From NCBI RefSeq assembly GCF_003334815.1, contig NZ_QOWO01000007.1: 64,000 nt of DNA, one strand, 5' to 3'. Position 1 is the stretch's first letter; each line of letters begins with the position of its first letter. Both the position numbers and the translations under genes were made by a program. Of this stretch, positions 2,041-45,590 are shown in pieces. This DNA comes from Escherichia coli. Its GTDB lineage: Bacteria > Pseudomonadota > Gammaproteobacteria > Enterobacterales > Enterobacteriaceae. The notes below the pieces were generated by a model. It worked only from the letters and a program-made list of their open reading frames with translations. It did no database searches and was not told where the DNA came from.

Positions 2041-2795
2041 TGGGAAATTCCTGGTTTACGGCCCGGTTGGGCGTCAAAGGTCATGCCGGTTTTACGGCGG
2101 CTGTCATCGCCCATCAGCCAGAGGTAGAGCGGCATGATATCAGCGGGTGTTTTAAGTTTCTGTGGATCTTCGGTCGGGAAGGCGCTGGCACGCATTGCGG
2201 TGCGCGTACCGCCTGGGTTAATGCAGTTGACACGCAGGCGCTGCTGATATTCATCGGCCAGTACCTGCATCATCCCTTCGGTGGCAAATTTCGACGCTGC
2301 ATATGCACCCCAGTTGGCTCGTCCCTGACGTCCAACGCTTGATGAAGTAAAGACCAGTGAACCGGCGTCCGATTTGAGTAATAAAGGAAGCAGTGCCTGG
2401 GTGAGCATAAAGGTGGCATTAACGTTGACCTGCATGACGTCCTGCCAGACCTGCGGATTTTGTTCGCTCATTGGGCAAACATCGCCGAGCAATCCGGCAT
2501 TATGCAAAACACCATCCAGACGCGGATAATTAACGGCAATGCGCTGTGCCAGTTGTTGGCAATTTTCGGACGTGCAGGTCAGCAAATCGAGAATAAACCA
2601 CTGTGGCTGACGCCCAGTTTCTTCGTTTATGTGGCTGGCTACCTGACGTAATTTTTCTTCATTACGGCCCAACAGAATCACTGTCGCACCATAGCGTGCA
2701 TACGTCATCGCGGCTTCACGACCAATACCATCGCTGGCTCCCGTCACCAGGATAATGCGATCATTGAGTAAATCTTGTTTTGGCTGGTAATGCAT
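2037..2795 (-). CDS. yciK: Short-chain dehydrogenase/reductase family oxidoreductase YciK
   Basis: 252 aa; Rossmann motif VTGASDGIG; overlaps btuR start by 4 nt. Confidence 0.9.
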   Translation of the reverse strand: MHYQPKQDLLNDRIILVTGASDGIGREAAMTYARYGATVILLGRNEEKLRQVASHINEETGRQPQWFILDLLTCTSENCQQLAQRIAVNYPRLDGVLHNAGLLGDVCPMSEQNPQVWQDVMQVNVNATFMLTQALLPLLLKSDAGSLVFTSSSVGRQGRANWGAYAASKFATEGMMQVLADEYQQRLRVNCINPGGTRTAMRASAFPTEDPQKLKTPADIMPLYLWLMGDDSRRKTGMTFDAQPGRKPGISQ

Positions 2796-3014
2796 GGCTA
2801 CTCCTCAACGACGTTGTCTGTCGCGCTGCCAGTGTACTTTATGACTTTGGGGCTTTATGCCTGAAACAGAAGGGCATTTCAATCAGCCTGGGGCGATAAC
2901 ACCGCAAAATGGATACTTTGTCATACTTTCGCTGCAATAACATCTCTGCGAGACGGCTTAACATGCCTGTTGTAAACTGTGAGCCAAAGCGTTGTTTAAC
3001 CAAGGTGGGGACTC

Positions 3015-4064
3015 GTGGAATTGTTGTCTGAATATGGTTTGTTTTTGGCGAAAATCGTTACCGTTGTGCTAGCGATTGCGGCGATTGCCGCCATTATTGT
3101 CAATGTTGCTCAACGTAATAAACGCCAGCGTGGCGAGTTACGGGTCAACAATCTCAGCGAACAGTATAAGGAGATGAAAGAAGAACTGGCCGCGGCGCTG
3201 ATGGACTCACATCAGCAAAAACAGTGGCACAAAGCGCAGAAGAAAAAGCATAAGCAAGAAGCGAAAGCAGCAAAAGCGAAAGCCAAACTGGGCGAGGTGG
3301 CAACTGACAGTAAACCCCGCGTCTGGGTGCTGGATTTTAAAGGCAGCATGGACGCCCATGAAGTGAACTCGCTACGTGAAGAGATAACGGCTGTACTCGC
3401 AGCATTCAAACCGCAGGATCAGGTTGTGCTCCGTCTGGAAAGCCCTGGTGGCATGGTGCATGGTTACGGGCTGGCGGCTTCGCAACTGCAGCGTCTGCGC
3501 GATAAAAACATTCCTTTAACTGTTACGGTAGACAAAGTCGCTGCCAGCGGCGGTTACATGATGGCCTGTGTGGCGGACAAAATTGTTTCCGCACCGTTTG
3601 CTATTGTGGGTTCCATTGGCGTGGTGGCGCAAATGCCCAACTTTAACCGCTTCCTGAAAAGCAAAGATATTGATATCGAACTGCACACTGCCGGGCAGTA
3701 TAAGCGCACGCTGACGTTGCTGGGTGAAAATACCGAAGAAGGGCGGGAGAAATTCCGCGAAGAGTTGAACGAAACGCATCAGTTGTTTAAAGATTTTGTG
3801 AAGCGTATGCGTCCTTCTCTGGATATTGAACAGGTGGCAACGGGTGAACACTGGTACGGACAACAGGCGGTAGAGAAAGGCCTGGTTGATGAAATCAACA
3901 CCAGTGATGAAGTTATTCTTAGCCTGATGGAAGGCCGTGAAGTGGTCAATGTACGCTATATGCAGCGTAAACGACTCATTGACCGATTCACCGGCAGCGC
4001 GGCAGAGAGCGCCGATCGATTGTTGCTACGCTGGTGGCAGCGGGGTCAAAAGCCATTGATGTAA
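3015..4064 (+). CDS. sohB: S49 family peptidase SohB (probable inner-membrane protease)
   Basis: 349 aa; GTG start; N-terminal TM helix; length and position match sohB. Confidence 0.9.
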   Translation: MELLSEYGLFLAKIVTVVLAIAAIAAIIVNVAQRNKRQRGELRVNNLSEQYKEMKEELAAALMDSHQQKQWHKAQKKKHKQEAKAAKAKAKLGEVATDSKPRVWVLDFKGSMDAHEVNSLREEITAVLAAFKPQDQVVLRLESPGGMVHGYGLAASQLQRLRDKNIPLTVTVDKVAASGGYMMACVADKIVSAPFAIVGSIGVVAQMPNFNRFLKSKDIDIELHTAGQYKRTLTLLGENTEEGREKFREELNETHQLFKDFVKRMRPSLDIEQVATGEHWYGQQAVEKGLVDEINTSDEVILSLMEGREVVNVRYMQRKRLIDRFTGSAAESADRLLLRWWQRGQKPLM

Positions 4065-4730: not shown

Positions 4731-7328
4731 ATGGGTAAAGCTCTTGTCATCGTTGAGTCCCCGGCAAAAGCCAAAACGATCAACAAGTATCTGGGTAGTG
4801 ACTACGTGGTGAAATCCAGCGTCGGTCACATCCGCGATTTGCCGACCAGTGGCTCAGCTGCCAAAAAGAGTGCCGACTCTACCTCCACCAAGACGGCTAA
4901 AAAGCCTAAAAAGGATGAACGTGGCGCTCTCGTCAACCGTATGGGGGTTGACCCGTGGCACAATTGGGAGGCGCACTATGAAGTGTTGCCTGGTAAAGAG
5001 AAGGTCGTCTCTGAACTGAAACAACTGGCTGAAAAAGCCGACCACATCTATCTCGCAACCGACCTTGACCGCGAAGGGGAAGCCATTGCATGGCACCTGC
5101 GGGAAGTGATTGGGGGTGATGATGCGCGCTATAGCCGAGTGGTGTTTAACGAAATTACTAAAAACGCGATCCGCCAGGCATTTAACAAACCGGGTGAGCT
5201 GAATATTGATCGTGTTAATGCCCAGCAGGCGCGTCGCTTTATGGACCGCGTGGTGGGGTATATGGTTTCGCCGCTGCTATGGAAAAAGATCGCTCGTGGT
5301 CTGTCTGCCGGTCGTGTGCAGTCGGTGGCGGTTCGCCTGGTGGTCGAGCGTGAGCGTGAAATTAAAGCGTTCGTGCCGGAAGAGTTCTGGGAAGTCGATG
5401 CCAGCACGACCACGCCATCTGGTGAAGCGTTGGCGTTACAGGTGACTCATCAGAACGACAAACCGTTCCGTCCGGTCAACAAAGAACAAACTCAGGCTGC
5501 GGTAAGTCTGCTGGAAAAAGCGCGCTACAGCGTGCTGGAACGTGAAGACAAACCGACAACCAGTAAACCTGGCGCTCCTTTTATTACCTCTACGCTGCAA
5601 CAAGCTGCCAGCACCCGTCTTGGATTTGGCGTGAAAAAAACCATGATGATGGCGCAGCGTTTGTATGAAGCAGGCTATATCACTTACATGCGTACCGACT
5701 CCACTAACCTGAGTCAGGACGCGGTAAATATGGTTCGCGGTTATATCAGCGATAATTTTGGTAAGAAATATCTGCCGGAAAGTCCGAATCAGTACGCCAG
5801 CAAAGAAAACTCACAGGAAGCGCACGAAGCGATTCGTCCTTCTGACGTCAATGTGATGGCGGAATCGCTGAAGGATATGGAAGCAGATGCGCAGAAACTG
5901 TACCAGTTAATCTGGCGTCAGTTCGTTGCCTGCCAGATGACCCCAGCGAAATATGACTCCACGACGCTGACCGTTGGTGCGGGCGATTTCCGCCTGAAAG
6001 CACGCGGTCGTATTTTGCGTTTTGATGGCTGGACAAAAGTGATGCCTGCGTTGCGTAAAGGCGATGAAGATCGCATCTTACCAGCAGTTAATAAAGGCGA
6101 TGCTCTGACGCTCGTTGAACTTACACCAGCCCAGCACTTTACCAAGCCGCCAGCCCGTTTCAGTGAAGCATCGCTGGTTAAAGAGCTGGAAAAACGCGGT
6201 ATCGGTCGTCCGTCTACCTATGCGTCGATCATTTCGACCATTCAGGATCGTGGCTACGTGCGAGTAGAAAATCGTCGTTTCTATGCGGAAAAAATGGGCG
6301 AAATCGTCACCGATCGCCTTGAAGAAAATTTCCGCGAGTTAATGAACTACGACTTTACCGCGCAGATGGAAAACAGCCTCGACCAGGTGGCAAATCACGA
6401 AGCAGAGTGGAAAGCTGTACTGGATCACTTCTTCTCGGATTTCACCCAGCAGTTAGATAAAGCTGAAAAAGATCCGGAAGAGGGTGGTATGCGCCCGAAC
6501 CAGATGGTTCTGACCAGCATTGACTGCCCGACTTGTGGTCGCAAAATGGGGATTCGCACAGCGAGCACCGGGGTATTCCTTGGCTGTTCTGGCTATGCGC
6601 TGCCGCCGAAAGAGCGTTGCAAAACCACCATTAACCTGGTGCCGGAAAACGAAGTGCTGAACGTGCTGGAAGGCGAAGATGCTGAAACCAACGCGCTGCG
6701 CGCAAAACGTCGTTGCCCGAAATGCGGCACGGCGATGGACAGCTATCTCATCGATCCGAAACGTAAGTTGCATGTCTGTGGTAATAACCCAACCTGCGAC
6801 GGTTACGAGATCGAAGAGGGCGAATTCCGCATTAAAGGTTATGACGGCCCGATCGTTGAGTGTGAAAAATGTGGCTCTGAAATGCACCTGAAAATGGGGC
6901 GTTTCGGTAAATACATGGCCTGCACCAACGAAGAGTGTAAAAACACACGTAAGATTTTACGTAACGGCGAAGTGGCACCCCCGAAAGAAGATCCGGTGCC
7001 ATTACCTGAGCTGCCGTGCGAAAAATCAGATGCTTATTTCGTGCTGCGTGACGGTGCTGCCGGTGTGTTCCTGGCTGCCAACACTTTCCCGAAATCGCGT
7101 GAAACGCGTGCGCCACTGGTGGAAGAGCTTTATCGCTTCCGCGACCGTCTGCCGGAAAAACTGCGTTATCTGGCCGATGCGCCACAGCAGGATCCGGAAG
7201 GTAATAAGACCATGGTTCGCTTTAGCCGTAAAACCAAACAGCAATATGTCTCTTCGGAAAAAGACGGAAAGGCGACTGGCTGGTCAGCATTTTATGTTGA
7301 TGGCAAATGGGTTGAAGGAAAAAAATAA
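4731..7328 (+). CDS. topA: DNA topoisomerase I
   Basis: 865 aa from ATG 4731 ([21 protein letters not shown]); three C-terminal Cys4 zinc ribbons (CPTCGRK..., CPKCGTAMD..., CEKCGSEMH...). The in-frame GTG at 4689 is rejected as the start. Confidence 0.96.
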
Positions 7329-7356
7329 CCTTTAATTCTGTCAGGTTTTTATAAAC

Positions 7357-7384
7357 AAAGGGTCGCGAAAGCGGCCCTTTTTTA
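7357..7384 (+). terminator. topA intrinsic terminator
   Basis: GGGTCGC-gaaa-GCGGCCC stem-loop (GNRA loop, one G-U pair) followed by TTTTTTTATT. Confidence 0.75.
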
Positions 7385-7513
7385 TTGCATATTATTTTTT
7401 CTTCACACCTATACACTAAGGCTATAAATGATATAGTGGTTATAGTTAGCACCTTTTTTATTATTAAATCGTATTAGTCACCCGCCAGGTGTGACGAAAA
7501 AACGATGTTCTGA

Positions 7514-8512
<999 letters not shown>

Positions 8513-8842
8513 TTTCTTGCGTTATTTTCGGCACCTTTTATGTAGCGAAGGTGCCGGAATATATTCTCTTTTGTTACTTATTTCTATACCGTGCACAATA
8601 TTTTTATCCCTCATATTTATAGGGTAAATTACCTGTAAAGTAGTGTCTAATTACCCGCCTCGCAAACTCCAGTTTTCAAATATCTATTTCAGGTCAAAAG
8701 ATTGAATTATTCACTGGAGACGATTCGTAAATTCGCTGGATTTTTGACTAAAGTTTCTTTAGGATTTGTCTCATCGTATGATTAATTACACCAATCGTTC
8801 AACGTCTTGCTGATAAGTGATGGCGATTATATGAGGTTAGCA

Positions 8843-8971
8843 ATGCCTTCTGGAAATCAGGAACCCCGCCGCGATCCTGAATTAAAACGTAAAGCCTGGC
8901 TGGCGGTTTTTCTTGGTTCTGCACTTTTCTGGGTGGTTGTCGCACTGCTGATTTGGAAAGTGTGGGGATAA
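8843..8971 (+). CDS. ymiA: Small membrane protein YmiA (42 aa)
   Basis: ATG 8843, single hydrophobic helix (WLAVFLGSALFWVVVALLIWKVW); small-gene call from recalled annotation; absent from the ORF track because below its size cut-off. Confidence 0.55.
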   Translation: MPSGNQEPRRDPELKRKAWLAVFLGSALFWVVVALLIWKVWG

Positions 8972-8973
8972 CT

Positions 8974-9141
8974 ATGGTCGGTCAGGAGCAACTGGAGTCG
9001 TCACCATTATGCCAGCATAGTGACAATGAAACAGAAACGAAACGGGAATGTTCCGTCGTTATTCCAGACGACTGGCAACTAACATCGCAGCAGCAAGCCT
9101 TTATAGAACTGTTTGCTGAAGATGATCAGCCGAAACAATAA
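8974..9141 (+). CDS. yciX: Small protein YciX (55 aa)
   Basis: ATG 8974 directly after ymiA stop; the ORF-track version starts at an upstream TTG (8953). Confidence 0.5.
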   Translation: MVGQEQLESSPLCQHSDNETETKRECSVVIPDDWQLTSQQQAFIELFAEDDQPKQ

Positions 9142-9513
9142 TTATCATCATTCTTATTACCCATTTTTAATGAATTAAAGGGCTTTTAATACACCGCAGC
9201 AATAACAGCTTGAGTTATCTCAACACAAAATAATAACCGTTAAGGGTGTAGCCTATGATCAACACAAATATGAAATATTGGTCCTGGATGGGCGCGTTTT
9301 CTCTGTCGATGCTCTTCTGGGCCGAACTCCTCTGGATCATTACTCACTGATCCTTGACCCCGCTGCGGCGGGGTTGTCATTTGCTTTGCCACAAGGTTTC
9401 TCCTCTTTTATCAATTTGGGTTGTTATCAAATCGTTACGCGATGTTTGTGTTATCTTTAATATTCACCCTGAAGAGAATCAGGGCTTCGCAACCCTGTCA
9501 TTAAGGAGGAGCT

Positions 9514-12189
9514 ATGTCGTCAACCCTACGAGAAGCCAGTAAGGACACGTTGCAGGCCAAAGATAAAACTTACCACTACTACAGCCTGCCGCTTGCTGCT
9601 AAATCACTGGGCGATATCACCCGTCTACCCAAGTCACTCAAAGTTTTGCTCGAAAACCTGCTGCGCTGGCAGGATGGTAACTCGGTTACCGAAGAGGATA
9701 TCCACGCGCTGGCAGGATGGCTGAAAAATGCCCATGCTGACCGTGAAATTGCCTACCGCCCGGCAAGGGTGCTGATGCAGGACTTTACCGGCGTACCTGC
9801 CGTTGTTGATCTGGCGGCAATGCGCGAAGCGGTTAAACGCCTCGGCGGCGATACTGCAAAGGTTAACCCGCTCTCACCGGTCGACCTGGTCATTGACCAC
9901 TCGGTGACCGTCGATCGTTTTGGTGATGATGAGGCATTTGAAGAAAACGTACGCCTGGAAATGGAGCGCAACCACGAACGTTATGTGTTCCTGAAATGGG
10001 GAAAGCAAGCGTTCAGTCGGTTTAGCGTCGTGCCGCCAGGCACAGGCATTTGCCATCAGGTTAACCTCGAATATCTCGGCAAAGCAGTGTGGAGTGAATT
10101 GCAGGACGGTGAATGGATTGCTTATCCGGATACACTCGTTGGTACTGACTCGCACACCACCATGATCAACGGCCTTGGCGTGCTGGGGTGGGGCGTTGGT
10201 GGGATCGAAGCAGAAGCCGCAATGTTAGGCCAGCCGGTTTCCATGCTTATCCCGGATGTAGTGGGCTTCAAACTTACCGGAAAATTACGTGAAGGTATTA
10301 CCGCCACAGACCTGGTTCTCACTGTTACCCAAATGCTGCGCAAACATGGCGTGGTGGGGAAATTCGTCGAATTTTATGGTGATGGTCTGGATTCACTACC
10401 GTTGGCGGATCGCGCCACCATTGCCAATATGTCGCCAGAATATGGTGCCACCTGTGGCTTCTTCCCAATCGATGCTGTAACCCTCGATTACATGCGTTTA
10501 AGCGGGCGCAGCGAAGATCAGGTCGAGTTGGTCGAAAAATATGCCAAAGCGCAGGGCATGTGGCGTAACCCGGGCGATGAACCAATTTTTACCAGTACGT
10601 TAGAACTGGATATGAATGACGTTGAAGCGAGCCTGGCAGGGCCTAAACGCCCACAGGATCGCGTTGCACTGCCCGATGTACCAAAAGCATTTGCCGCCAG
10701 TAACGAACTGGAAGTGAATGCCACGCATAAAGATCGCCAGCCGGTCGATTATGTTATGAACGGACATCAGTATCAGTTACCTGATGGCGCTGTGGTCATT
10801 GCTGCGATAACCTCGTGCACCAACACCTCTAACCCAAGTGTGCTGATGGCCGCAGGCTTGCTGGCGAAAAAAGCCGTAACTCTGGGCCTCAAGCGGCAAC
10901 CATGGGTCAAAGCGTCGCTGGCACCGGGTTCGAAAGTCGTTTCTGATTATCTGGCAAAAGCGAAACTGACACCGTATCTCGACGAACTGGGGTTTAACCT
11001 TGTGGGATACGGTTGTACCACCTGTATTGGTAACTCTGGGCCGCTGCCCGATCCTATCGAAACGGCAATCAAAAAAGGCGATTTAACCGTCGGTGCGGTG
11101 CTGTCCGGCAACCGTAACTTTGAAGGCCGTATCCATCCGCTGGTTAAAACTAACTGGCTGGCCTCGCCGCCGCTGGTGGTTGCCTATGCGCTGGCGGGAA
11201 ATATGAATATCAACCTGGCTTCTGAGCCTATCGGCCATGATCGCAAAGGCGATCCGGTTTATCTGAAAGATATCTGGCCATCGGCACAAGAAATTGCCCG
11301 TGCGGTAGAACAAGTCTCCACAGAAATGTTCCGCAAAGAGTACGCAGAAGTTTTTGAAGGCACAGCAGAGTGGAAGGGAATTAACGTCACACGATCCGAT
11401 ACCTACGGTTGGCAGGAGGACTCAACCTATATTCGCTTATCGCCTTTCTTTGATGAAATGCAGGCAACACCAGCACCAGTGGAAGATATTCACGGTGCGC
11501 GGATCCTCGCAATGCTGGGGGATTCAGTCACCACTGACCATATCTCTCCGGCGGGCAGTATTAAGCCCGACAGCCCAGCGGGTCGATATCTACAAGGTCG
11601 GGGTGTTGAGCGAAAAGACTTTAACTCCTACGGTTCGCGGCGTGGTAACCATGAAGTGATGATGCGCGGCACCTTCGCCAATATTCGCATCCGTAATGAA
11701 ATGGTGCCTGGCGTTGAAGGGGGGATGACGCGGCATTTACCTGACAGCGACGTAGTCTCTATTTATGATGCTGCGATGCGCTATAAGCAGGAGCAAACGC
11801 CGCTGGCGGTGATTGCCGGGAAAGAGTATGGATCAGGCTCCAGTCGTGACTGGGCGGCAAAAGGTCCGCGTCTGCTTGGTATTCGTGTGGTGATTGCCGA
11901 ATCGTTTGAACGAATTCACCGTTCGAATTTAATTGGCATGGGCATCCTGCCGCTGGAATTTCCGCAAGGCGTAACGCGTAAAACGTTAGGGCTAACCGGG
12001 GAAGAGAAGATTGATATTGGCGATCTGCAAAACCTACAACCCGGCGCGACGGTTCCGGTGACGCTTACGCGCGCGGATGGTAGCCAGGAAGTCGTACCCT
12101 GCCGTTGTCGTATCGACACCGCGACGGAGTTGACCTACTACCAGAACGACGGCATTTTGCATTATGTCATTCGTAATATGTTGAAGTAA
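9514..12189 (+). CDS. acnA: Aconitate hydratase A
   Basis: 891 aa; Fe-S cluster cysteine motifs ([18 protein letters not shown]). Confidence 0.96.
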
Positions 12190-12194
12190 CAACT

Positions 12195-12231
12195 ATTTGC
12201 TTGCCGGTTATTTTGCTTCCGGCAAGCAAAT
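12195..12231. terminator. Bidirectional terminator between convergent acnA and ribA
   Basis: 13-bp stem ATTTGCTTGCCGG / CCGGCAAGCAAAT flanked by T/A tracts. Confidence 0.7.
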
Positions 12232-12252
12232 GAATTACACAATGCAAGAGGG

Positions 12253-12843
12253 TTATTTGTTCAGCAAATGGCCCATTTTCTCGGCTTTGGTATCGAGATA
12301 ATGTTCGTTATTGGGGTTACGACCTACAATCAATGGTACGCGTTCAACAATATTAATCCCTGCTTCGGTCAGAATTTCGACTTTTTTCGGGTTATTGGTT
12401 AACAAGCGGACTTCATTGACGCCAAGGAGTTTGAACATATCAGCGCAAAGAGTGAAGTCGCGCTCATCAGCGGCGAAGCCTAACTGGTGGTTAGCCTCTA
12501 CGGTATCGTAACCTTGATCCTGCAGTGCGTAAGCGCGGATTTTATTCAGCAGACCAATGTTACGACCTTCCTGACGGTGATACAGCAAAATACCACGGCC
12601 TTCCTCGGCAATTTGCGTCAATGCCGCTTCGAGCTGGAAGCCACAATCGCAGCGCAAGCTGAACAGGGCGTCACCGGTCAGACATTCGGAATGGACGCGC
12701 GCAAGTACCGGGGTATGCCCGGAAATATCGCCATAGACTAGCGCGACATGATCGTGTCCGGTTGCCAGTTCTTCAAATCCCACCATCAGGAAATCGCCCC
12801 ATGGGGTTGGCAGTTTGGCTTCTGCCACACGTTTAAGCTGCAT
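12253..12843 (-). CDS. ribA: GTP cyclohydrolase II
   Basis: 196 aa from [11 protein letters not shown]; Zn-binding Cys cluster (CLTGD...CDCGFQ). The ORF track extends 21 codons further upstream. Confidence 0.94.
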
Positions 12844-16792: not shown

Positions 16793-17011
16793 TTATTTAC
16801 CGACCTGGTGACCAATAACACCACCGACAGCTGCACCACCTAATGTACCCAACGTACTGCCATCGGTCAGTACTGCACCGCCTAATGCCCCTGCACCCGC
16901 GCCGATTGCGGTGTTGCGGTCCCGTTTAGACCAGTTAGAACAGGCACTCAGAGACATTGCCAAAGTAATTGCCAGAACAGCCGCGGTCATTTTTTTGCTC
17001 GTTACAAACAT
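16793..17011 (-). CDS. osmB: Osmotically inducible lipoprotein OsmB
   Basis: 72 aa; signal peptide with lipobox LSAC; Gly-rich mature part. Confidence 0.94.
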   Translation of the reverse strand: MFVTSKKMTAAVLAITLAMSLSACSNWSKRDRNTAIGAGAGALGGAVLTDGSTLGTLGGAAVGGVIGHQVGK

Positions 17012-17279
17012 AATACTCTCTCCTGAATTTATGATTCACGGAAGTAAGCTCTCTATAACTATAATAGCTAAGAATAAGCCTGGTGAAATTATTCCGTGAA
17101 ATCTGCTCGCGCGCAGGGTTATATCACGCAGGTGATAATGACTTCCTGTTATATCGCTGATAATAATTTTATATCTTGAGAGTGTTAATAACAGGTAAAT
17201 AGTCTTAATTATCAACCAGGAATCATCTTAGAGCGGATGATTTGCCAAACTGCAAATCATCCGTAGAGAAGGGAAATGG

Positions 17280-18029
17280 TTAAATGTCAACGACGTGAAC
17301 GGTGAGTTTACTGTGCTCAAGATGCATCAGATCGCTGGCGCGTATTTTCGAATCGGTAATCACGCGATTGAATCGCTCAACGGGACCGATGGAGTATGAA
17401 TGTACAGCACCAAATTTCGAGCTGTCAGTCAGGACTATCGCTTCGCACTCTTTTTCCAGCACGGCATTGACCACATCGGTACGCATCATATCGCGACCGG
17501 TAAATCCAGTTTCAGGTTGCCAGCCATCAATACCAATAAATGCTTTGCTGAAATGCACCTGTTGGATGCACTGGCGTGTCAAAGGGCCAACCATACTTTC
17601 GCTTTTTTTCTGATACACGCCACCGAGCAAAATAACTTCACAAGGCGCGTCTTTCAGCAAATGCGCGATGTAGCTGCTGACCGTGATGATAGTGACATTT
17701 TTCTTCTGCTCGCCCAGAGTCCGGGCGAGTAGGGCATTGCTGCTGCCATTTTCGATAAAGATGGTTTCGCCCGGTTGAACCAGCGACGCGGCAAACTCGG
17801 CGAGTTCACGCTTCAGCGTATAGTTGCTCATCATACGGGTTTCGACGTCATCACTATCAAGCGAAACAGCAAAGCCATGTGCACGGCGGAGGTAACTCAG
17901 TTTTTCGAGTGTGTTGAGATCCTGGCGAATGGTAACTTCAGAAACTCCAGTGGCTTTTGCCAGATCGGTTACGCTAACCTGACCCTGGTCAATGACCATC
18001 TGTAGAATAGTTTGTTGTCGGGAATTCAT
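17280..18029 (-). CDS. yciT: DeoR-family transcriptional regulator YciT
   Basis: 249 aa; N-terminal HTH ([21 protein letters not shown]) and DeoR C-terminal sugar-phosphate-binding domain. Confidence 0.9.
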
Positions 18030-18118
18030 CGCTGTAATTCTTATAACGTTATAATACTTAATAAAAAAATACTGACGCGCCGGGCATCCTCAAATAGGAA
18101 AACCTGAAGGCACGATTG

Positions 18119-18292
18119 TTAAATCTCCCACGGTGCCTTCGGGATGTCTGGCGTAGATTCAGCAACCTGGCGCAAGAGTTCTGCTTTAAGTATCTCGAGA
18201 TTATGGATCGCAGAGTGGTAATCGCCTGCCACAAGGATATCTAACACAATATCAATACGTTCGGCAACGCGCTGGGCATCAAATTCAGACAT
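18119..18292 (-). CDS. yciZ: Small protein YciZ (UPF0509)
   Basis: 57 aa from MSEFDAQRV (60 aa if the upstream ATG at 18301 is used). Confidence 0.7.
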
Positions 18293-18439
18293 CAAGGACA
18301 TCCTTATAGCAAAAGGGGGAAAATGAATAATGCAAAAATTGCCGCTAAAAGAGAAGTGTTTAACAGCAACGGCTAATTATCATCCAGGAATACGATATAT
18401 AATGACGGGATATAGCGCTAAGTATATATATTCATCTAC

Positions 18440-20425
18440 TTATGCGCGCTTCAGATAGCGTTTATACCAGCGTTCGAAGGCGACGGCGGGCATCGGTTTG
18501 GCAAACAAAAATCCTTGCCGCTCATTGATCCCGTTCTTGGTTAAAAAAGCATCTTCCTTTGCACTCTCTACACCTTCGGCGATCACCTGAAGATTCAATG
18601 CCTGGGCCACAGCGACGATCGCCCGGACCAGTGACTGCGAGACAGGTTGTTTGTGAATATCTCGAACAAAAACCTGGTCAAGTTTGATGGCATCGATCGG
18701 AAAGCGCGCCAGTTGCGAAAGTGAAGAGTAGCCGGTACCAAAATCATCCAGATGCACTTGCGCACCTAGTTGGCTAAATTGTTGAATAACAGACAGTGCC
18801 AGTTCATCATTCTCAATCAGACAACTCTCTGTCAGTTCAACATCTATAGGGCAGTATTCAAAATTGAGTTCCTGGAGAACCTGTTTCAGGGCGGTGAAAA
18901 TGGTTTGATCGGCGAGCTGACGTGCAGAAATATTTACCGCCACTCGCAGGTTTATGCCTTTATCCCGCCACTTTGCCACCTGGCGTACGACATCGAGAAT
19001 CACCCAACGGCCTAAAGGCACAATTAGCCCTGACTCTTCGGCGTAGGAAATGAAGTCCAACGGTGGAATCAACCCACGTTCAGGTGACTGCCAACGTACT
19101 AGTGCTTCCAGACTGCGCACTTCGCCACGCCAGGTGATTTTCGGTTGATAGTGAATAACCAACTGATCGTTTTCCAGTGCTTTACGCAAGTTGGTATCCA
19201 GCCAGAGATATTCAAATACCCGTTGATTCATTTCTGGGGTAAAAACGCAAAATTGTCCTCGTCCGCCTTCCTTCGCTGTGTACATTGCTGTGTCGGCGTG
19301 ACGAATAATAGCCGTGCTGTCTGAACCATGTTCGGGAGAGAGTGCAATACCTACTGAACAGCTGGTATAAACTTCAATTAAACCAATGCGAAAGGGGAGC
19401 CGTAAGCGGGTCAAAATTCGTGATGCCATTGCTTCCAGCGCGCTTTGTGAGGTGTTGGATGCCAGTACCAGAAACTCATCCCCACCTGGACGCGCCAACA
19501 CCTGGTCATGTTCGAGACAGCTTAAAATAGCCAATGACACGTCGCGTAATAACTGGTCACCAAACAAATGCCCATAGGCGTCGTTGACCTTTTTGAAATT
19601 ATCCAAATCAAGATACACAACCCCAACTTTATTGTTATCTGCATGATTAATAGCGTGATCGATTAAATCCTGCATTGCGTTACGATTCGGCAGTCCGGTG
19701 ATACTGTCGGTATTTGCCAGAATACGCAGTCGCTCCTGAGCGCGGCGCTCTTCGGTAATGTCGGTGCCGGAACAGATTAAAAAAATCTCGTTTTTGCCAC
19801 TGCCGCTGTGGACAAATTTATTGCGAAACAGAAACAGCCGCTGGCCTTTACATGTTGGTATCCACAGTTCGACTTCATATGCATTGCCGCTTCGAAAAAA
19901 TACACGGTTATTGCGCCTGGATGCCGCAGCTTCACGACGGCTCATAAACAGTTTAAACACGCTTTGCCCAATGACGTCGTGTTCTTTCAACCCTGTGTAA
20001 TCTTCACATAACCGATTGAAGCGTTGGATATTCCCCCGGCTGTCGAGAATCACTATTGCGGAATGTGCTTCAGAAACTACCTGCTCAGCAAAGGAAAGCC
20101 CGTGTGATAAATCACGAGCAACCGCCGGTGTGTCATGCCATGCAGACGCGTTGCCAGCCCATTCCCGTTTATTGATTTTTCGTCCTACCAGATGCACAGA
20201 AAGATCGCTTTCATCGACGGTCAGACTCATCATCAGGCTGGAGGTGATGACCGTCATTTCCCTGATGCGAGCAGCCTGTTCGGCAGATAACTGCAATGTA
20301 CGATCAGGTTCTGTGGTTTCGGTGGTAGAAAAGCGCAAAACATCGCTGCTTTCCGTCAACCGCCAGTATGGATTGTGCGATCCGAGAAAGTTGTACAACG
20401 TTGTGGACTCCCTAACGGTTTTCAT
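18440..20425 (-). CDS. pdeR: Cyclic-di-GMP phosphodiesterase PdeR (Gmr); PAS-GGDEF-EAL protein
   Basis: 661 aa; GGDEF motif (RPGGDEFLVL) and EAL motif (RSLEALVRW). Confidence 0.94.
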   Translation of the reverse strand: MKTVRESTTLYNFLGSHNPYWRLTESSDVLRFSTTETTEPDRTLQLSAEQAARIREMTVITSSLMMSLTVDESDLSVHLVGRKINKREWAGNASAWHDTPAVARDLSHGLSFAEQVVSEAHSAIVILDSRGNIQRFNRLCEDYTGLKEHDVIGQSVFKLFMSRREAAASRRNNRVFFRSGNAYEVELWIPTCKGQRLFLFRNKFVHSGSGKNEIFLICSGTDITEERRAQERLRILANTDSITGLPNRNAMQDLIDHAINHADNNKVGVVYLDLDNFKKVNDAYGHLFGDQLLRDVSLAILSCLEHDQVLARPGGDEFLVLASNTSQSALEAMASRILTRLRLPFRIGLIEVYTSCSVGIALSPEHGSDSTAIIRHADTAMYTAKEGGRGQFCVFTPEMNQRVFEYLWLDTNLRKALENDQLVIHYQPKITWRGEVRSLEALVRWQSPERGLIPPLDFISYAEESGLIVPLGRWVILDVVRQVAKWRDKGINLRVAVNISARQLADQTIFTALKQVLQELNFEYCPIDVELTESCLIENDELALSVIQQFSQLGAQVHLDDFGTGYSSLSQLARFPIDAIKLDQVFVRDIHKQPVSQSLVRAIVAVAQALNLQVIAEGVESAKEDAFLTKNGINERQGFLFAKPMPAVAFERWYKRYLKRA

Positions 20426-34801: not shown

Positions 34802-35566
34802 ATGGAAAATATAATGAACAATCCGGTTATCGGTGTCGTAATGTGCAGGAACAGGCTTAAGGGTCATGCGACCCAGACTCTGCAAGAAAAGTACCTGAAT
34901 GCCATCATCCATGCAGGCGGCTTGCCTATTGCGCTACCACATGCGCTGGCGGAACCGTCATTACTTGAACAACTTTTGCCGAAACTCGATGGCATTTATC
35001 TTCCTGGTAGTCCCAGCAATGTGCAGCCGCACCTATATGGTGAAAACGGCGATGAGCCTGACGCCGATCCCGGGCGTGATCTTCTGAGCATGGCGATAAT
35101 TAATGCCGCACTCGAAAGGCGCATCCCCATTTTCGCCATCTGCCGGGGTTTACAAGAACTGGTGGTGGCAACCGGTGGTTCGTTGCATCGCAAGCTGTGC
35201 GAACAGCCTGAATTGCTGGAACATCGGGAAGATCCCGAACTGCCGGTGGAACAGCAATATGCACCGTCGCATGAAGTTCAGGTTGAAGAGGGGGGATTAC
35301 TGTCTGCGTTGTTACCTGAATGTAGCAACTTTTGGGTAAACTCTCTACATGGACAAGGGGCGAAGGTCGTTAGCCCACGGTTGCGTGTTGAAGCTCGCTC
35401 GCCGGATGGCTTAGTTGAGGCGGTTAGCGTCATCAATCATCCTTTTGCGCTGGGCGTACAGTGGCACCCGGAATGGAACAGTAGCGAGTACGCGCTTTCG
35501 CGTATATTGTTCGAGGGCTTTATCACCGCTTGTCAGCACCATATCGCTGAAAAACAGCGACTCTGA
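34802..35566 (+). CDS. puuD: Gamma-glutamyl-GABA hydrolase PuuD (class I glutamine amidotransferase-like)
   Basis: 254 aa from MENIMNNP; nucleophile Cys in AICRGLQ. Confidence 0.92.
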   Translation: MENIMNNPVIGVVMCRNRLKGHATQTLQEKYLNAIIHAGGLPIALPHALAEPSLLEQLLPKLDGIYLPGSPSNVQPHLYGENGDEPDADPGRDLLSMAIINAALERRIPIFAICRGLQELVVATGGSLHRKLCEQPELLEHREDPELPVEQQYAPSHEVQVEEGGLLSALLPECSNFWVNSLHGQGAKVVSPRLRVEARSPDGLVEAVSVINHPFALGVQWHPEWNSSEYALSRILFEGFITACQHHIAEKQRL

Positions 35567-43685: not shown

Positions 43686-43699
43686 AAGAATTCACCATG

Positions 43700-43726
43700 A
43701 GCGGCGCTTATGCGCCGTTTTTTTTT
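43700..43726 (+). terminator. pspE (psp operon) intrinsic terminator
   Basis: GC stem CGGCGC-ttat-GCGCCG followed by nine T. Confidence 0.8.
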
Positions 43727-43870
43727 CTGTCACACCTTATTTACATCCCCATAGATTATTTGCGTCAGCTCACAAATACGCTTTTTCCCTGGTAAAAAAT
43801 GATTTCCTGCGTGACTAAAACCCTTGTGCTCAATTGACAGTTTATTTTCTGCGGAGTAGTCTCTCGTTTC

Positions 43871-43885
43871 ATGGGACCGCTACCA
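43871..43885 (+). promoter_or_regulatory. Candidate LacI-family (YcjW) operator half of a repeated 15-mer, immediately upstream of ycjM
   Basis: ATGGGACCGCTACCA; imperfect palindrome TGGGACC/GCTACCA; exact second copy at 53800-53814. Confidence 0.4.
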
Positions 43886-43897
43886 CGGAAAGGCAAC

Positions 43898-45577
43898 ATG
43901 AAACAGAAAATTACGGATTACCTGGACGAAATCTACGGTGGAACATTTACCGCAACTCATTTACAGAAACTTGTAACGCGTCTTGAGAGTGCGAAACGAT
44001 TAATTACACAGCGACGTAAAAAACACTGGGATGAAAGTGATGTCGTGTTAATTACCTATGCCGATCAATTTCACAGCAATGATTTAAAACCATTACCCAC
44101 ATTTAATCAGTTTTACCATCAATGGCTGCAAAGCATTTTTTCACATGTTCATTTGTTGCCGTTTTATCCATGGTCATCTGATGATGGCTTTTCGGTAATT
44201 GATTATCATCAGGTCGCCAGTGAAGCGGGGGAGTGGCAGGATATTCAGCAACTCGGTGAATGCAGTCATTTAATGTTTGATTTTGTCTGCAACCATATGT
44301 CGGCAAAAAGTGAATGGTTTAAAAACTATTTACAACAGCATCCAGGTTTTGAAGATTTTTTTATTGCCGTTGACCCGCAAACCGATCTCAGCGCCGTCAC
44401 TCGCCCGCGTGCGTTACCGTTATTAACGCCATTCCAGATGCGCGATCATTCAACGCGCCATTTATGGACCACCTTTAGTGACGATCAAATTGACCTGAAT
44501 TACCGTAGCCCTGAAGTGTTGCTGGCGATGGTGGATGTTTTACTCTGTTACCTTGCGAAAGGTGCTGAGTATGTCCGCCTGGATGCCGTTGGCTTTATGT
44601 GGAAAGAGCCGGGAACAAGCTGCATCCATCTGGAAAAAACACATCTGATTATCAAACTGTTACGGTCGATTATTGATAACGTTGCGCCAGGTACAGTGAT
44701 CATTACCGAGACCAATGTTCCGCATAAAGACAACATTGCTTACTTTGGCGCAGGCGATGACGAAGCACATATGGTGTACCAGTTCTCGCTGCCGCCACTG
44801 GTGCTGCATGCGGTGCAAAAACAGAACGTTGAGGCGCTTTGTGCGTGGGCGCAAAACCTGACACTACCTTCCAGCAACACCACCTGGTTTAACTTCCTCG
44901 CCTCTCACGATGGCATCGGGCTAAACCCGCTACGGGGCTTGTTGCCTGAAAGCGAAATATTAGAGCTGGTCGAGGCGTTACAGCAGGAAGGTGCATTAGT
45001 AAACTGGAAAAATAATCCCGACGGTACACGCAGTCCGTATGAAATAAATGTGACCTATATGGATGCGTTAAGCCGCCGTGAGAGTAGCGATGAAGAACGT
45101 TGCGCCAGGTTTATCCTTGCCCATGCGATTTTGTTAAGTTTCCCCGGTGTGCCAGCGATATATATTCAAAGTATTCTTGGCTCGCGTAATGATTACGCAG
45201 GTGTCGAAAAAATCGGATATAACCGTGCGATTAACCGTAAAAAATATCACAGTAAAGAGATAACCCGAGAACTGAACGATGAAGCTACATTAAGGCATGC
45301 GGTATATCATGAGTTGTCGCGTTTAATTACACTTCGTCGCAGCCATAACGAGTTTCATCCGGATAATAATTTTACCATTGATACGATTAATTCATCCGTA
45401 ATGCGTATTCAAAGAAGTAACGCTGATGGTAATTGTCTGACTGGATTGTTTAATGTCAGTAAAAATATTCAGCATGTAAATATTACTAATCTGCATGGTC
45501 GGGATCTGATTAGTGAAGTTGATATATTGGGTAATGAAATAACGCTGCGCCCCTGGCAGGTTATGTGGATTAAATAA
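43898..45577 (+). CDS. ycjM: GH13 sucrose-phosphorylase-like enzyme YcjM (reported glucosylglycerate phosphorylase)
   Basis: 559 aa from MKQKITDY; conspicuously AT-rich coding sequence. Confidence 0.88.
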   Translation: MKQKITDYLDEIYGGTFTATHLQKLVTRLESAKRLITQRRKKHWDESDVVLITYADQFHSNDLKPLPTFNQFYHQWLQSIFSHVHLLPFYPWSSDDGFSVIDYHQVASEAGEWQDIQQLGECSHLMFDFVCNHMSAKSEWFKNYLQQHPGFEDFFIAVDPQTDLSAVTRPRALPLLTPFQMRDHSTRHLWTTFSDDQIDLNYRSPEVLLAMVDVLLCYLAKGAEYVRLDAVGFMWKEPGTSCIHLEKTHLIIKLLRSIIDNVAPGTVIITETNVPHKDNIAYFGAGDDEAHMVYQFSLPPLVLHAVQKQNVEALCAWAQNLTLPSSNTTWFNFLASHDGIGLNPLRGLLPESEILELVEALQQEGALVNWKNNPDGTRSPYEINVTYMDALSRRESSDEERCARFILAHAILLSFPGVPAIYIQSILGSRNDYAGVEKIGYNRAINRKKYHSKEITRELNDEATLRHAVYHELSRLITLRRSHNEFHPDNNFTIDTINSSVMRIQRSNADGNCLTGLFNVSKNIQHVNITNLHGRDLISEVDILGNEITLRPWQVMWIK

Positions 45578-45590
45578 AAAGGAACATCTC

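Follow-up and report, generated by a model that had tools for sequence, protein, structure and literature searches.

Position-conserved AT-rich tracts within the ycj operon of Escherichia coli and related Enterobacteriaceae

We analysed a 64 kb stretch of Escherichia coli DNA (contig NZ_QOWO01000007.1; hereafter the window) that contains the ycjMNOPQRSTUV-ompG operon, flanked upstream by the psp operon and downstream by ycjW on the opposite strand, followed by ycjX, ycjF and tyrR. The window is K-12-like, with 99.97% identity to MG1655 and a counterpart there from approximately position 1,326,318, and its ycj locus is identical to that of strain ML35. The first gene of the operon, ycjM, corresponds exactly to the gene annotated in RefSeq at 43898–45577. 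Residues 83–317 of its product comprise a Pfam Alpha-amylase domain (PF00128, E 1.5e-20) and residues 47–513 match sucrose phosphorylases in the PDB (E 3e-57 to 1e-43); this combination of a catalytic domain with homology to solved phosphorylases places YcjM among the GH13_18 sucrose-phosphorylase-like proteins. Here we describe AT-rich tracts at both ends of ycjM and in the 3' third of ycjV, which recur at the same positions in the operons of other genera and which, in ycjM, arise from synonymous codon choice.

Base composition of the ycj locus

A sequence-only reading of this region had described ycjM (above all its last ~400 bp), the 3' end of ycjV and ompG as AT-rich and ycjO through ycjT as GC-rich, and had proposed that the locus was assembled from parts with different histories or that its AT-rich parts are xenogeneically silenced. 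We therefore measured GC content and GC at third codon positions (GC3), ranking segments among same-length windows of the 64 kb and genes among the 55 genes of the window. The features defined by composition are as follows.

43700..44437, + strand: AT-rich tract 1, the ycjM promoter region and ycjM codons 1–180; GC 0.419, 1.5th percentile
43898..45577, + strand: ycjM, glucosylglycerate phosphorylase, GH13 sucrose-phosphorylase-like (RefSeq annotation)
44438..45037, + strand: centre of ycjM, codons 181–380, the catalytic core, of normal composition; GC 0.500
45038..45770, + strand: AT-rich tract 2, ycjM codons 381–559, a 13-bp spacer and the first ~60 codons of ycjN; GC 0.398, 0.2nd percentile
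46904..54489, + strand: ycjO to ycjU, the operon interior, of normal to slightly high GC; GC 0.542, 96th percentile for its length
55163..55629, + strand: AT-rich tract 3, ycjV codons 221–360 and the ycjV-ompG spacer; GC 0.430, 4.7th percentile
55630..56535, + strand: ompG, monomeric porin of average composition; GC 0.499, GC3 0.563
56646..57644, − strand: ycjW, repressor gene, AT-rich over its full length; GC 0.454, GC3 0.432

Against a whole-window GC of 0.514, a mean gene GC of 0.519 and a mean GC3 of 0.555, ycjM ranks last of the 55 genes in GC (0.438, z −2.7; GC3 0.432) and ycjW second to last. Within ycjM the pattern is low-normal-low, with a GC3 of 0.38 over codons 1–180, 0.55 over codons 181–380 and 0.35 over codons 381–559. 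The first 540 bp have a GC of 0.411 (1.9th percentile), the middle 600 bp 0.500 and the last 400 bp 0.380, a value matched in just 0.7% of windows of that length, and the 3' AT-rich stretch continues for ~150–190 bp into ycjN. Third codon positions differ between the ycjM ends and centre (Fisher test, P=4e-5) and between the ends and ycjN-V (P=5e-22). In ycjV, GC3 falls from 0.62–0.78 over the first 200 codons to 0.28–0.50 over codons 221–360. All three tracts are thus well above average in AT content over several hundred bp, their GC lying between the 0.2nd and 4.7th percentiles.

The measurements confirm a non-uniform, mosaic composition, including the AT-richness of ycjM and of the 3' end of ycjV, and they correct the earlier description in three respects: ompG is not AT-rich; the GC of ycjO through ycjT (0.527–0.557) is mildly elevated, with ycjO and ycjP alone standing out (GC3 0.72, the maximum of the window); and the 5' tract of ycjM, ycjW and the extension of tract 2 into ycjN are AT-rich parts that had been missed.

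To ask what third-position composition the proteins themselves would impose, we calculated an expected GC3 from the amino acids of each segment and the codon usage in the remaining 54 window genes. Codons 1–180 of ycjM have a GC3 of 0.38 where 0.56 is expected (z −5.1) and codons 381–559 have 0.35 where 0.54 is expected (z −5.4), while the centre is close to expectation (0.55 and 0.58, z −0.8). The dips in ycjM stem from synonymous codon choice and not from amino-acid content, and we ruled out amino-acid composition as the source of the low GC3, as expected values of 0.54–0.56 stand against observed values of 0.35–0.38. Site-level protein constraint of the Akashi type was likewise ruled out as the main cause. 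Columns conserved in amino acid remain AT-rich at the third position in the ycjM ends (GC3 0.44–0.46, vs 0.65 in the centre), and ycjT and ycjU, which evolve at the same rate as ycjM, have no dip. Nor do rare or atypical codons mark the 5' tract as foreign: its rare-codon fraction is 0.022 and its codon log-likelihood is near the median. Only the 3' tract is mildly atypical in codon usage, with a rare-codon fraction of 0.078. Relative to a synonymous-shuffle null, A/T runs of at least 6 are modestly but consistently enriched in the ycjM ends and not in the centre.

Conservation and history of the tracts

Loci comprising a YcjM orthologue and 10 kb on either side were retrieved from 80 species. 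All Enterobacteriaceae loci, along with those of Budvicia and Limnobaculum, share the ycjN-V gene order with ycjM at its head, mostly next to psp, and in the three further genera sampled, Enterobacter, Citrobacter and Buttiauxella, the operon continues into ompG-ycjW-ycjX-ycjF(-tyrR). Among the Enterobacteriaceae loci examined, ycj shows neither the sporadic distribution nor the differing location of a genomic island. The GC3 of ycjM lies 0.10–0.25 under that of the rest of the operon in every operon-bearing species.

Codon alignments across pspF-ycjV identified only three strong dips common to 44 non-Escherichia species: ycjM codons 1–180 (deviation −0.15 to −0.29, in 95–100% of the species), ycjM codons 380–559 (−0.15 to −0.27), reaching into ycjN, and ycjV codons 220–360 (−0.10 to −0.17, in 75–97%). 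In a comparison of 45 species, the 5' end of ycjM has a GC3 under the rest of the operon in 45/45 and the 3' end in 44/45. Across the 44 species no conserved GC3 dip was found in the interior from ycjO to ycjU, and the fluctuations seen in pspF, ycjN and ycjT of E. coli were not shared. The centre of ycjM follows the GC3 of the host (slope 1.14, r 0.88), whereas the ends are decoupled from it (slopes 0.35 and 0.52), and the 5' end keeps a total GC of 0.40–0.47 in all 45 species. In Enterobacter, Citrobacter and Buttiauxella, ycjW is also low, with a GC3 of 0.44–0.50 vs ~0.55–0.72 for its neighbours, and ompG (0.48–0.53) falls below those neighbours to a lesser extent.

Orthologues of ycjM that stand alone, outside any ycj operon, were found in Pantoea and Erwinia; these have a flat GC3 of 0.62–0.75 along the gene, without dips. 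In Pantoea agglomerans, for example, ycjM lies between yhgF and bioH and its GC3 of 0.70 equals that of its neighbours. The difference extends to the proteins: the fraction of residues F, Y, M, I, N and K (FYMINK) in the YcjM ends is 0.28 in the operon type vs 0.22 in the stand-alone type, and the centres show no such difference. The protein ends of operon-type YcjM are shifted toward amino acids of AT-rich codons.

Two of the loci carry additional genes near ycjW. In Buttiauxella izardii, three genes with a GC of 0.36–0.39 (a DUF2645 gene, a hypothetical gene and a type VI secretion system Hcp gene; 10829–12385 of the retrieved locus) are inserted between ompG and ycjW, a genuine island-like insertion into a locus that is conserved in other respects. 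In Citrobacter, a rhodanese-domain gene lies between ycjW and ycjX (12005–12322 of the retrieved locus). The rhodanese gene pspE is upstream of ycjM in E. coli, and no pspE match was found there in the non-Escherichia loci; the Citrobacter placement may bear on the reported link of YcjW and PspE to H2S production (PMC6599011).

We next considered whether the AT-rich parts have a history of their own. Protein-distance matrices of the 5', central and 3' parts of ycjM and of ycjN, ycjQRS, ycjT, ycjU and ycjV correlate pairwise with r 0.83–0.95, so that the comparison of ycjM with ycjT suggested by the sequence-only reading, made here on distance matrices rather than full phylogenies, reveals no conflict. 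The composition boundaries fall inside ycjM and ycjV and not at gene or module borders. With genes cut by the boundaries, synteny kept, matrices congruent and dips common to 44–45 species, a difference in histories does not account for the composition at genus level. At a deeper level, the stand-alone occurrence of ycjM in Pantoea and Erwinia shows it to be a separable module, and within E. coli it is recombinant (below); neither its separability nor these recombination mosaics coincide with the composition pattern. We found no tRNA genes and no flanking repeats in the window, and no integrase, insertion sequence (IS) or other mobility gene is annotated in the K-12 ycj locus.

Recent synonymous changes, polarised among seven Escherichia-like sequences, are balanced in the ycjM ends, where 60 weak-to-strong (W>S) and 51 strong-to-weak (S>W) changes were counted (singletons 48:35), and are strongly S>W-biased in control genes (179:458). 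The resulting equilibrium GC (GC*) is ~0.41–0.45 in the ends vs 0.42 in control genes. Given this balanced flux, the ycjM ends are at their short-term equilibrium, and the rest of the operon is held ~0.2 above it. Between genera, the residual memory of the W or S state at synonymous sites, corrected for codon family, is ~0.12 in the ends. By the Cauchy-Schwarz inequality, the per-lineage decay of an ancestral deviation is therefore at most ~0.35, and with a present deviation of −0.22 this would require an ancestral GC3 of ~0–0.05 in the ends only, beside a normal centre, a scenario that we regard as effectively excluded. Some genus pairs give a memory of 0.2–0.3, which is formally compatible with an ancestral GC3 near 0.15. 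Parsimony estimates of GC* in Citrobacter and Enterobacter clusters were ~0.50 everywhere; we judged them uninformative, a method artefact, because on long branches majority-rule parsimony overcounts departures from the common state, in AT-rich and GC-rich regions alike. An island of uniformly atypical composition that drifts toward its host would look different from what we observe, namely a low-normal-low pattern, typical 5' codons and balanced flux. Collectively, the ycj locus is an old, vertically inherited operon of the Enterobacteriaceae, and its mosaic is not evidence of recent or separate origins but a position-fixed, long-maintained feature.

Within E. coli, ycjM differs by 5–7% between phylogroups vs 1–2% for psp and tyrR, and 1,580 of 5,031 genomes carry ycjM alleles merely 90–95% identical. 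The gene is a fine-scale recombination mosaic containing 300–400-bp blocks that are 12–14.5% divergent. Two such blocks lie at 44700–45000 and 45100–45500, and the E. coli and Escherichia lineages that share variants differ from one block to the other; their divergence, far above that typical within a species, indicates imported or very old alleles. Alleles 12–14% apart keep the same composition segment by segment, and composition thus belongs to position and not to allele history. Of practical relevance to the proposed use of ycjM as a marker for enteric E. coli are its unusual diversity and mosaicism across the species and its pseudogene state in at least one O157:H7 strain.

Some lineages exhibit further variation at the locus. 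In Pseudocitrobacter vendiensis, the ycjN-V proteins are 97–99% identical to those of E. coli and pspF and pspA only 86–90%, and DNA divergence from K-12 drops from 26–73% to 6–15% inside the ycjM 5' tract (~44100–44200), a pattern pointing to transfer of the ycj operon between genera, with a probable recombination junction inside ycjM. In O157:H7 strain LSU61 (17001–19985 of the retrieved locus, equivalent to window 43898–46883), the annotation gives ycjM as frameshifted and ycjN as interrupted by an internal stop, from which we conclude that the operon head is decaying in that lineage. No ycjM match was found in 395 of 5,426 complete E. coli genomes (~7%), nearly all of which match in the flanks; one E. 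coli strain has an IS1 insertion in ycjM, and six matches to a pspE-ycjM-ycjN query in the E. coli collection are on records labelled as plasmids. The ompG-ycjW spacer (56400–56850) has ~28% mismatch to strain 1162invT2, a strain without puu genes in which the spacer is ~60 bp shorter (50 vs 110 bp) through an indel or a replacement.

Control of the operon and comparison with known systems

Four regulatory features were located in the sequence.

43699..43720, + strand: intrinsic terminator 3' of pspE, consisting of a 9-bp stem, 6 of whose pairs are G-C, and a downstream T run
43834..43862, + strand: probable ycjM promoter, −35 TTGACA (43834–43839), 17-nt spacer, −10 TAGTCT (43857–43862), recognised by its motifs
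43872..43885, + strand: operator O1 of the LacI-family protein YcjW, TGGGACCGCTACCA, an exact 14-mer between the probable promoter and the ycjM ATG
53800..53813, + strand: YcjW operator O2, identical to O1, in the last ycjT codons just before the ycjU start

The pspE terminator separates the psp operon from the ycj operon. The 14-mer, a palindrome with a central CG, occurs exactly twice, at O1 and O2, and these match the two YcjW peaks found by chromatin immunoprecipitation (ChIP) in a published study, O1 being also the position of its gel-shift probe (PMC6599011). The same work places the YcjW site between the predicted transcription start and the ATG, in agreement with the promoter position given here, and reports that deletion of ycjW "massively" derepresses the operon and that kojibiose releases YcjW (PMC6599011). 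YcjW is the main repressor of the ycj operon.

Several reports connect the locus with H-NS. An intragenic PhoB ChIP site in ycjM, at MG1655 1371360, was flagged as lying in an H-NS-bound region, with ycjM expression near zero (PMC10294691, Table 1); this coordinate maps to approximately window position 45042, at the start of tract 2. The ycjMN-V genes are marked as H-NS-associated in two ChIP sets, those of Kahramanoglou and Oshima, and are up 2.4-fold upon overexpression of the H-NS antagonist SlyA (PMC5797941), and ompG is up 3.06-fold in a Δhns mutant of ATCC 25922 (PMC11840965). The SlyA and Δhns effects on ycj and ompG may be direct or indirect. The sequence-only suggestion that the AT-rich parts are silenced thus finds support in the literature as far as H-NS association is concerned, while calling such old, vertically inherited DNA "xenogeneic" is a misnomer.

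AT-rich H-NS targets typically abound in spurious promoter-like sequences. A depletion of promoter motifs in the K-12 region (1 promoter-like site vs 5.0±2.1 in shuffles) did not hold when tested against the synonymous-shuffle null: across 51 species, promoter-like and −10-like motifs were neither enriched nor depleted.

The arrangement at ycj can be compared with two H-NS-controlled operons. The proU operon (proVWX) is silenced by H-NS through upstream and downstream regulatory elements. As in proU, an AT-rich tract at ycj overlaps the promoter and enters the first structural gene of a conserved, non-foreign core operon, and H-NS would act alongside a specific regulatory input. In ycj, however, there are two intragenic tracts of ~540–730 bp, 600 bp apart, in addition to those at the operon tail, and the specific input is the LacI-type YcjW rather than osmolarity. 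The bgl operon is a cryptic operon silenced by H-NS sites upstream and 600–700 bp downstream of its promoter. Like bgl, ycj is a silent sugar-catabolic operon with one AT-rich region at the promoter and another several hundred bp into the first gene. Unlike bgl, which is confined to E. coli and close relatives, ycj has tracts conserved in position in ~45 species of many genera, and relief of YcjW repression alone strongly induces it (PMC6599011).

With xenogeneically silenced islands, the locus shares low GC, the reported H-NS association and SlyA counter-silencing (PMC5797941, PMC10294691), and elevated within-species diversity, which has been reported for H-NS-bound DNA (PMC4720273). It differs from them in its family-wide synteny, its lack of any mobility gene, tRNA gene or flanking repeat, and the patchiness within its genes. 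The pair of identical 14-bp palindromic operators, one at the head of the operon and one preceding ycjU, and the relief by kojibiose (PMC6599011) are those of a LacI-family catabolic operon; such regulation explains the specific control of ycj but not AT-rich tracts of 450–750 bp.

Explanations for the AT-rich tracts

From these papers we take the association with H-NS, the induction by SlyA, the response of ompG to Δhns and the repression by YcjW, and we consider them together with our own observations of composition, its synonymous nature, its conservation in position, its absence from stand-alone orthologues, and the operator sites. We propose that an ongoing pressure at the DNA level would keep the tracts AT-rich at synonymous sites, at three or four fixed positions: the ycjM head, the ycjM tail with the ycjN start, the 3' third of ycjV, and ycjW. 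These tracts would bind H-NS (and StpA), serving as nucleation and filament sites, and H-NS would further silence the operon at its head and tail, atop YcjW repression at the two operators. Bridging between the two ycjM tracts, which are separated by ~600 bp, could hinder initiation or elongation. That the tracts are maintained H-NS/StpA binding sites adding a silencing layer to YcjW repression is the best supported of the mechanisms considered and, in our estimation, an even call; that selection for H-NS binding maintains them, and that bridging occurs, we infer. The broader proposition of a family-wide silencing scaffold, in which purifying selection would preserve sites for H-NS filaments or bridging by acting directly on the base composition of hundreds of synonymous sites in many Enterobacteriaceae genera, is put forward more tentatively, as a possibility that we consider rather unlikely.

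Several points weigh against this proposal. Per site, W>S and S>W changes stand in the same ratio in the ycjM ends and in control genes, which gives no sign of a distinct short-term fixation bias, and the ends may be at mutational equilibrium without selection for AT. H-NS binds any sufficiently AT-rich DNA, and its binding here could be a consequence of the composition and not its cause. At z ~1 per species, the A/T-run enrichment is weak, and it could also arise from heterogeneity within the segments. The H-NS association we cite is second-hand and resolves the gene or operon rather than two separate ycjM tracts (PMC10294691, PMC5797941), and because deletion of ycjW alone derepresses the operon (PMC6599011), H-NS is at most a secondary layer.

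The main rival explanation is passive. If the force that raises GC, whether selection or biased gene conversion, were ineffective in these segments, they would rest at an AT-rich mutational equilibrium and H-NS binding would be a by-product. This agrees with the equal per-site ratio, with end GC3 values of 0.35–0.38 that are close to GC* under balanced fluxes, with the correlation between windowed amino-acid conservation and GC3 along YcjM (Spearman 0.67), and with a locus that is dispensable and decaying in some lineages, as the O157:H7 lesions in ycjM and ycjN and the ~7% of E. coli without ycjM attest. It provides no mechanism, however, by which the same codon ranges would be spared in 45 species while the central 200 codons track the host with a slope of 1.14. 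Nor does it fit the conserved amino-acid columns in the ends that are still AT-rich at the third position, codons 61–180, which are conserved like the centre and yet low in GC3, the fast-evolving ycjT and ycjU without a dip, or the stand-alone orthologues, whose conservation profile is similar and whose GC3 is flat. On balance we consider this passive account improbable, though a serious candidate.

A relic of foreign origin, with ycjM, the ycjV 3' end and ycjW derived from an AT-rich donor, or a stitched operon, in either case not yet equilibrated, draws on the separability of ycjM, which Pantoea and Erwinia carry by itself elsewhere in the chromosome, and on at least one apparent intergeneric operon transfer, that of P. 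vendiensis, with a junction inside ycjM. Distances at 4-fold sites between genera (0.42–0.58) are not formally saturated, and the end-vs-host slopes of 0.35–0.52 would numerically fit partial equilibration. Such a relic would nevertheless need an ancestral GC3 of ~0–0.05 in the ends only, and it faces kept synteny with psp and tyrR, congruent distance matrices for all parts, boundaries inside genes with a normal ycjM centre in every species, the lack of net W>S flux in the ends, 5' codon usage typical of E. coli, and a window without tRNA gene or flanking repeat around a K-12 locus without annotated integrase or IS gene; we give it very little credence, and it is close to refuted. An equally remote place in our estimation, or one slightly lower, belongs to some other embedded function that needs AT-richness, such as internal promoters driving ycjN or ompG, an antisense RNA or gene, or a need for unstructured mRNA in translation or Rho control. 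Tracts 2 and 3 do lie directly upstream of ycjN and ompG, and in K-12 a 126-residue antisense open reading frame (ORF) crosses the ycjM-ycjN junction (45392–45772, − strand). Yet tracts of 450–750 bp far exceed a promoter or ribosome-binding region, promoter-like motifs match the shuffle null, and the GC skew of tract 2 is positive (G>C), unlike C-rich rut sites. Even a close Escherichia relative does not share the antisense ORF, and we ruled out a conserved antisense gene at this junction.

AT-rich, H-NS-bound genes of E. coli are routinely taken as recent imports, and ycj is a counter-example: its low GC reports a maintained property and not foreignness, in patches that are old, fixed in position within coding sequence and common to dozens of genera. 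Such deep positional conservation of synonymous AT-richness may surprise the specialist. Were the tracts a selected scaffold, AT-richness together with H-NS binding would not mark foreign DNA, and bacteria could keep compositional regulatory elements inside coding sequence for very long periods. If selection for H-NS binding is responsible, ycj would be a tractable locus for gauging the constraint that nucleoid proteins place on synonymous composition and the layering of silencer and repressor; if the cause is passive, the question becomes why a GC-raising force skips the same 180-codon blocks in 45 species.

Elsewhere, strain ML35 carries an IS421 that splits a DUF2543 (ymjA-like) gene (2257–3486 of a retrieved locus) and a prophage adjoining sapB, neither of which is present in MG1655. 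The other lowest-GC segments of the window, with 400-bp minima of 0.35–0.415, are found at 7151–9500, 16901–18400 and 34351–35000, surrounding topA-cysB, pyrF/yciH-osmB-yciT and the divergent puuA-puuD region, respectively.

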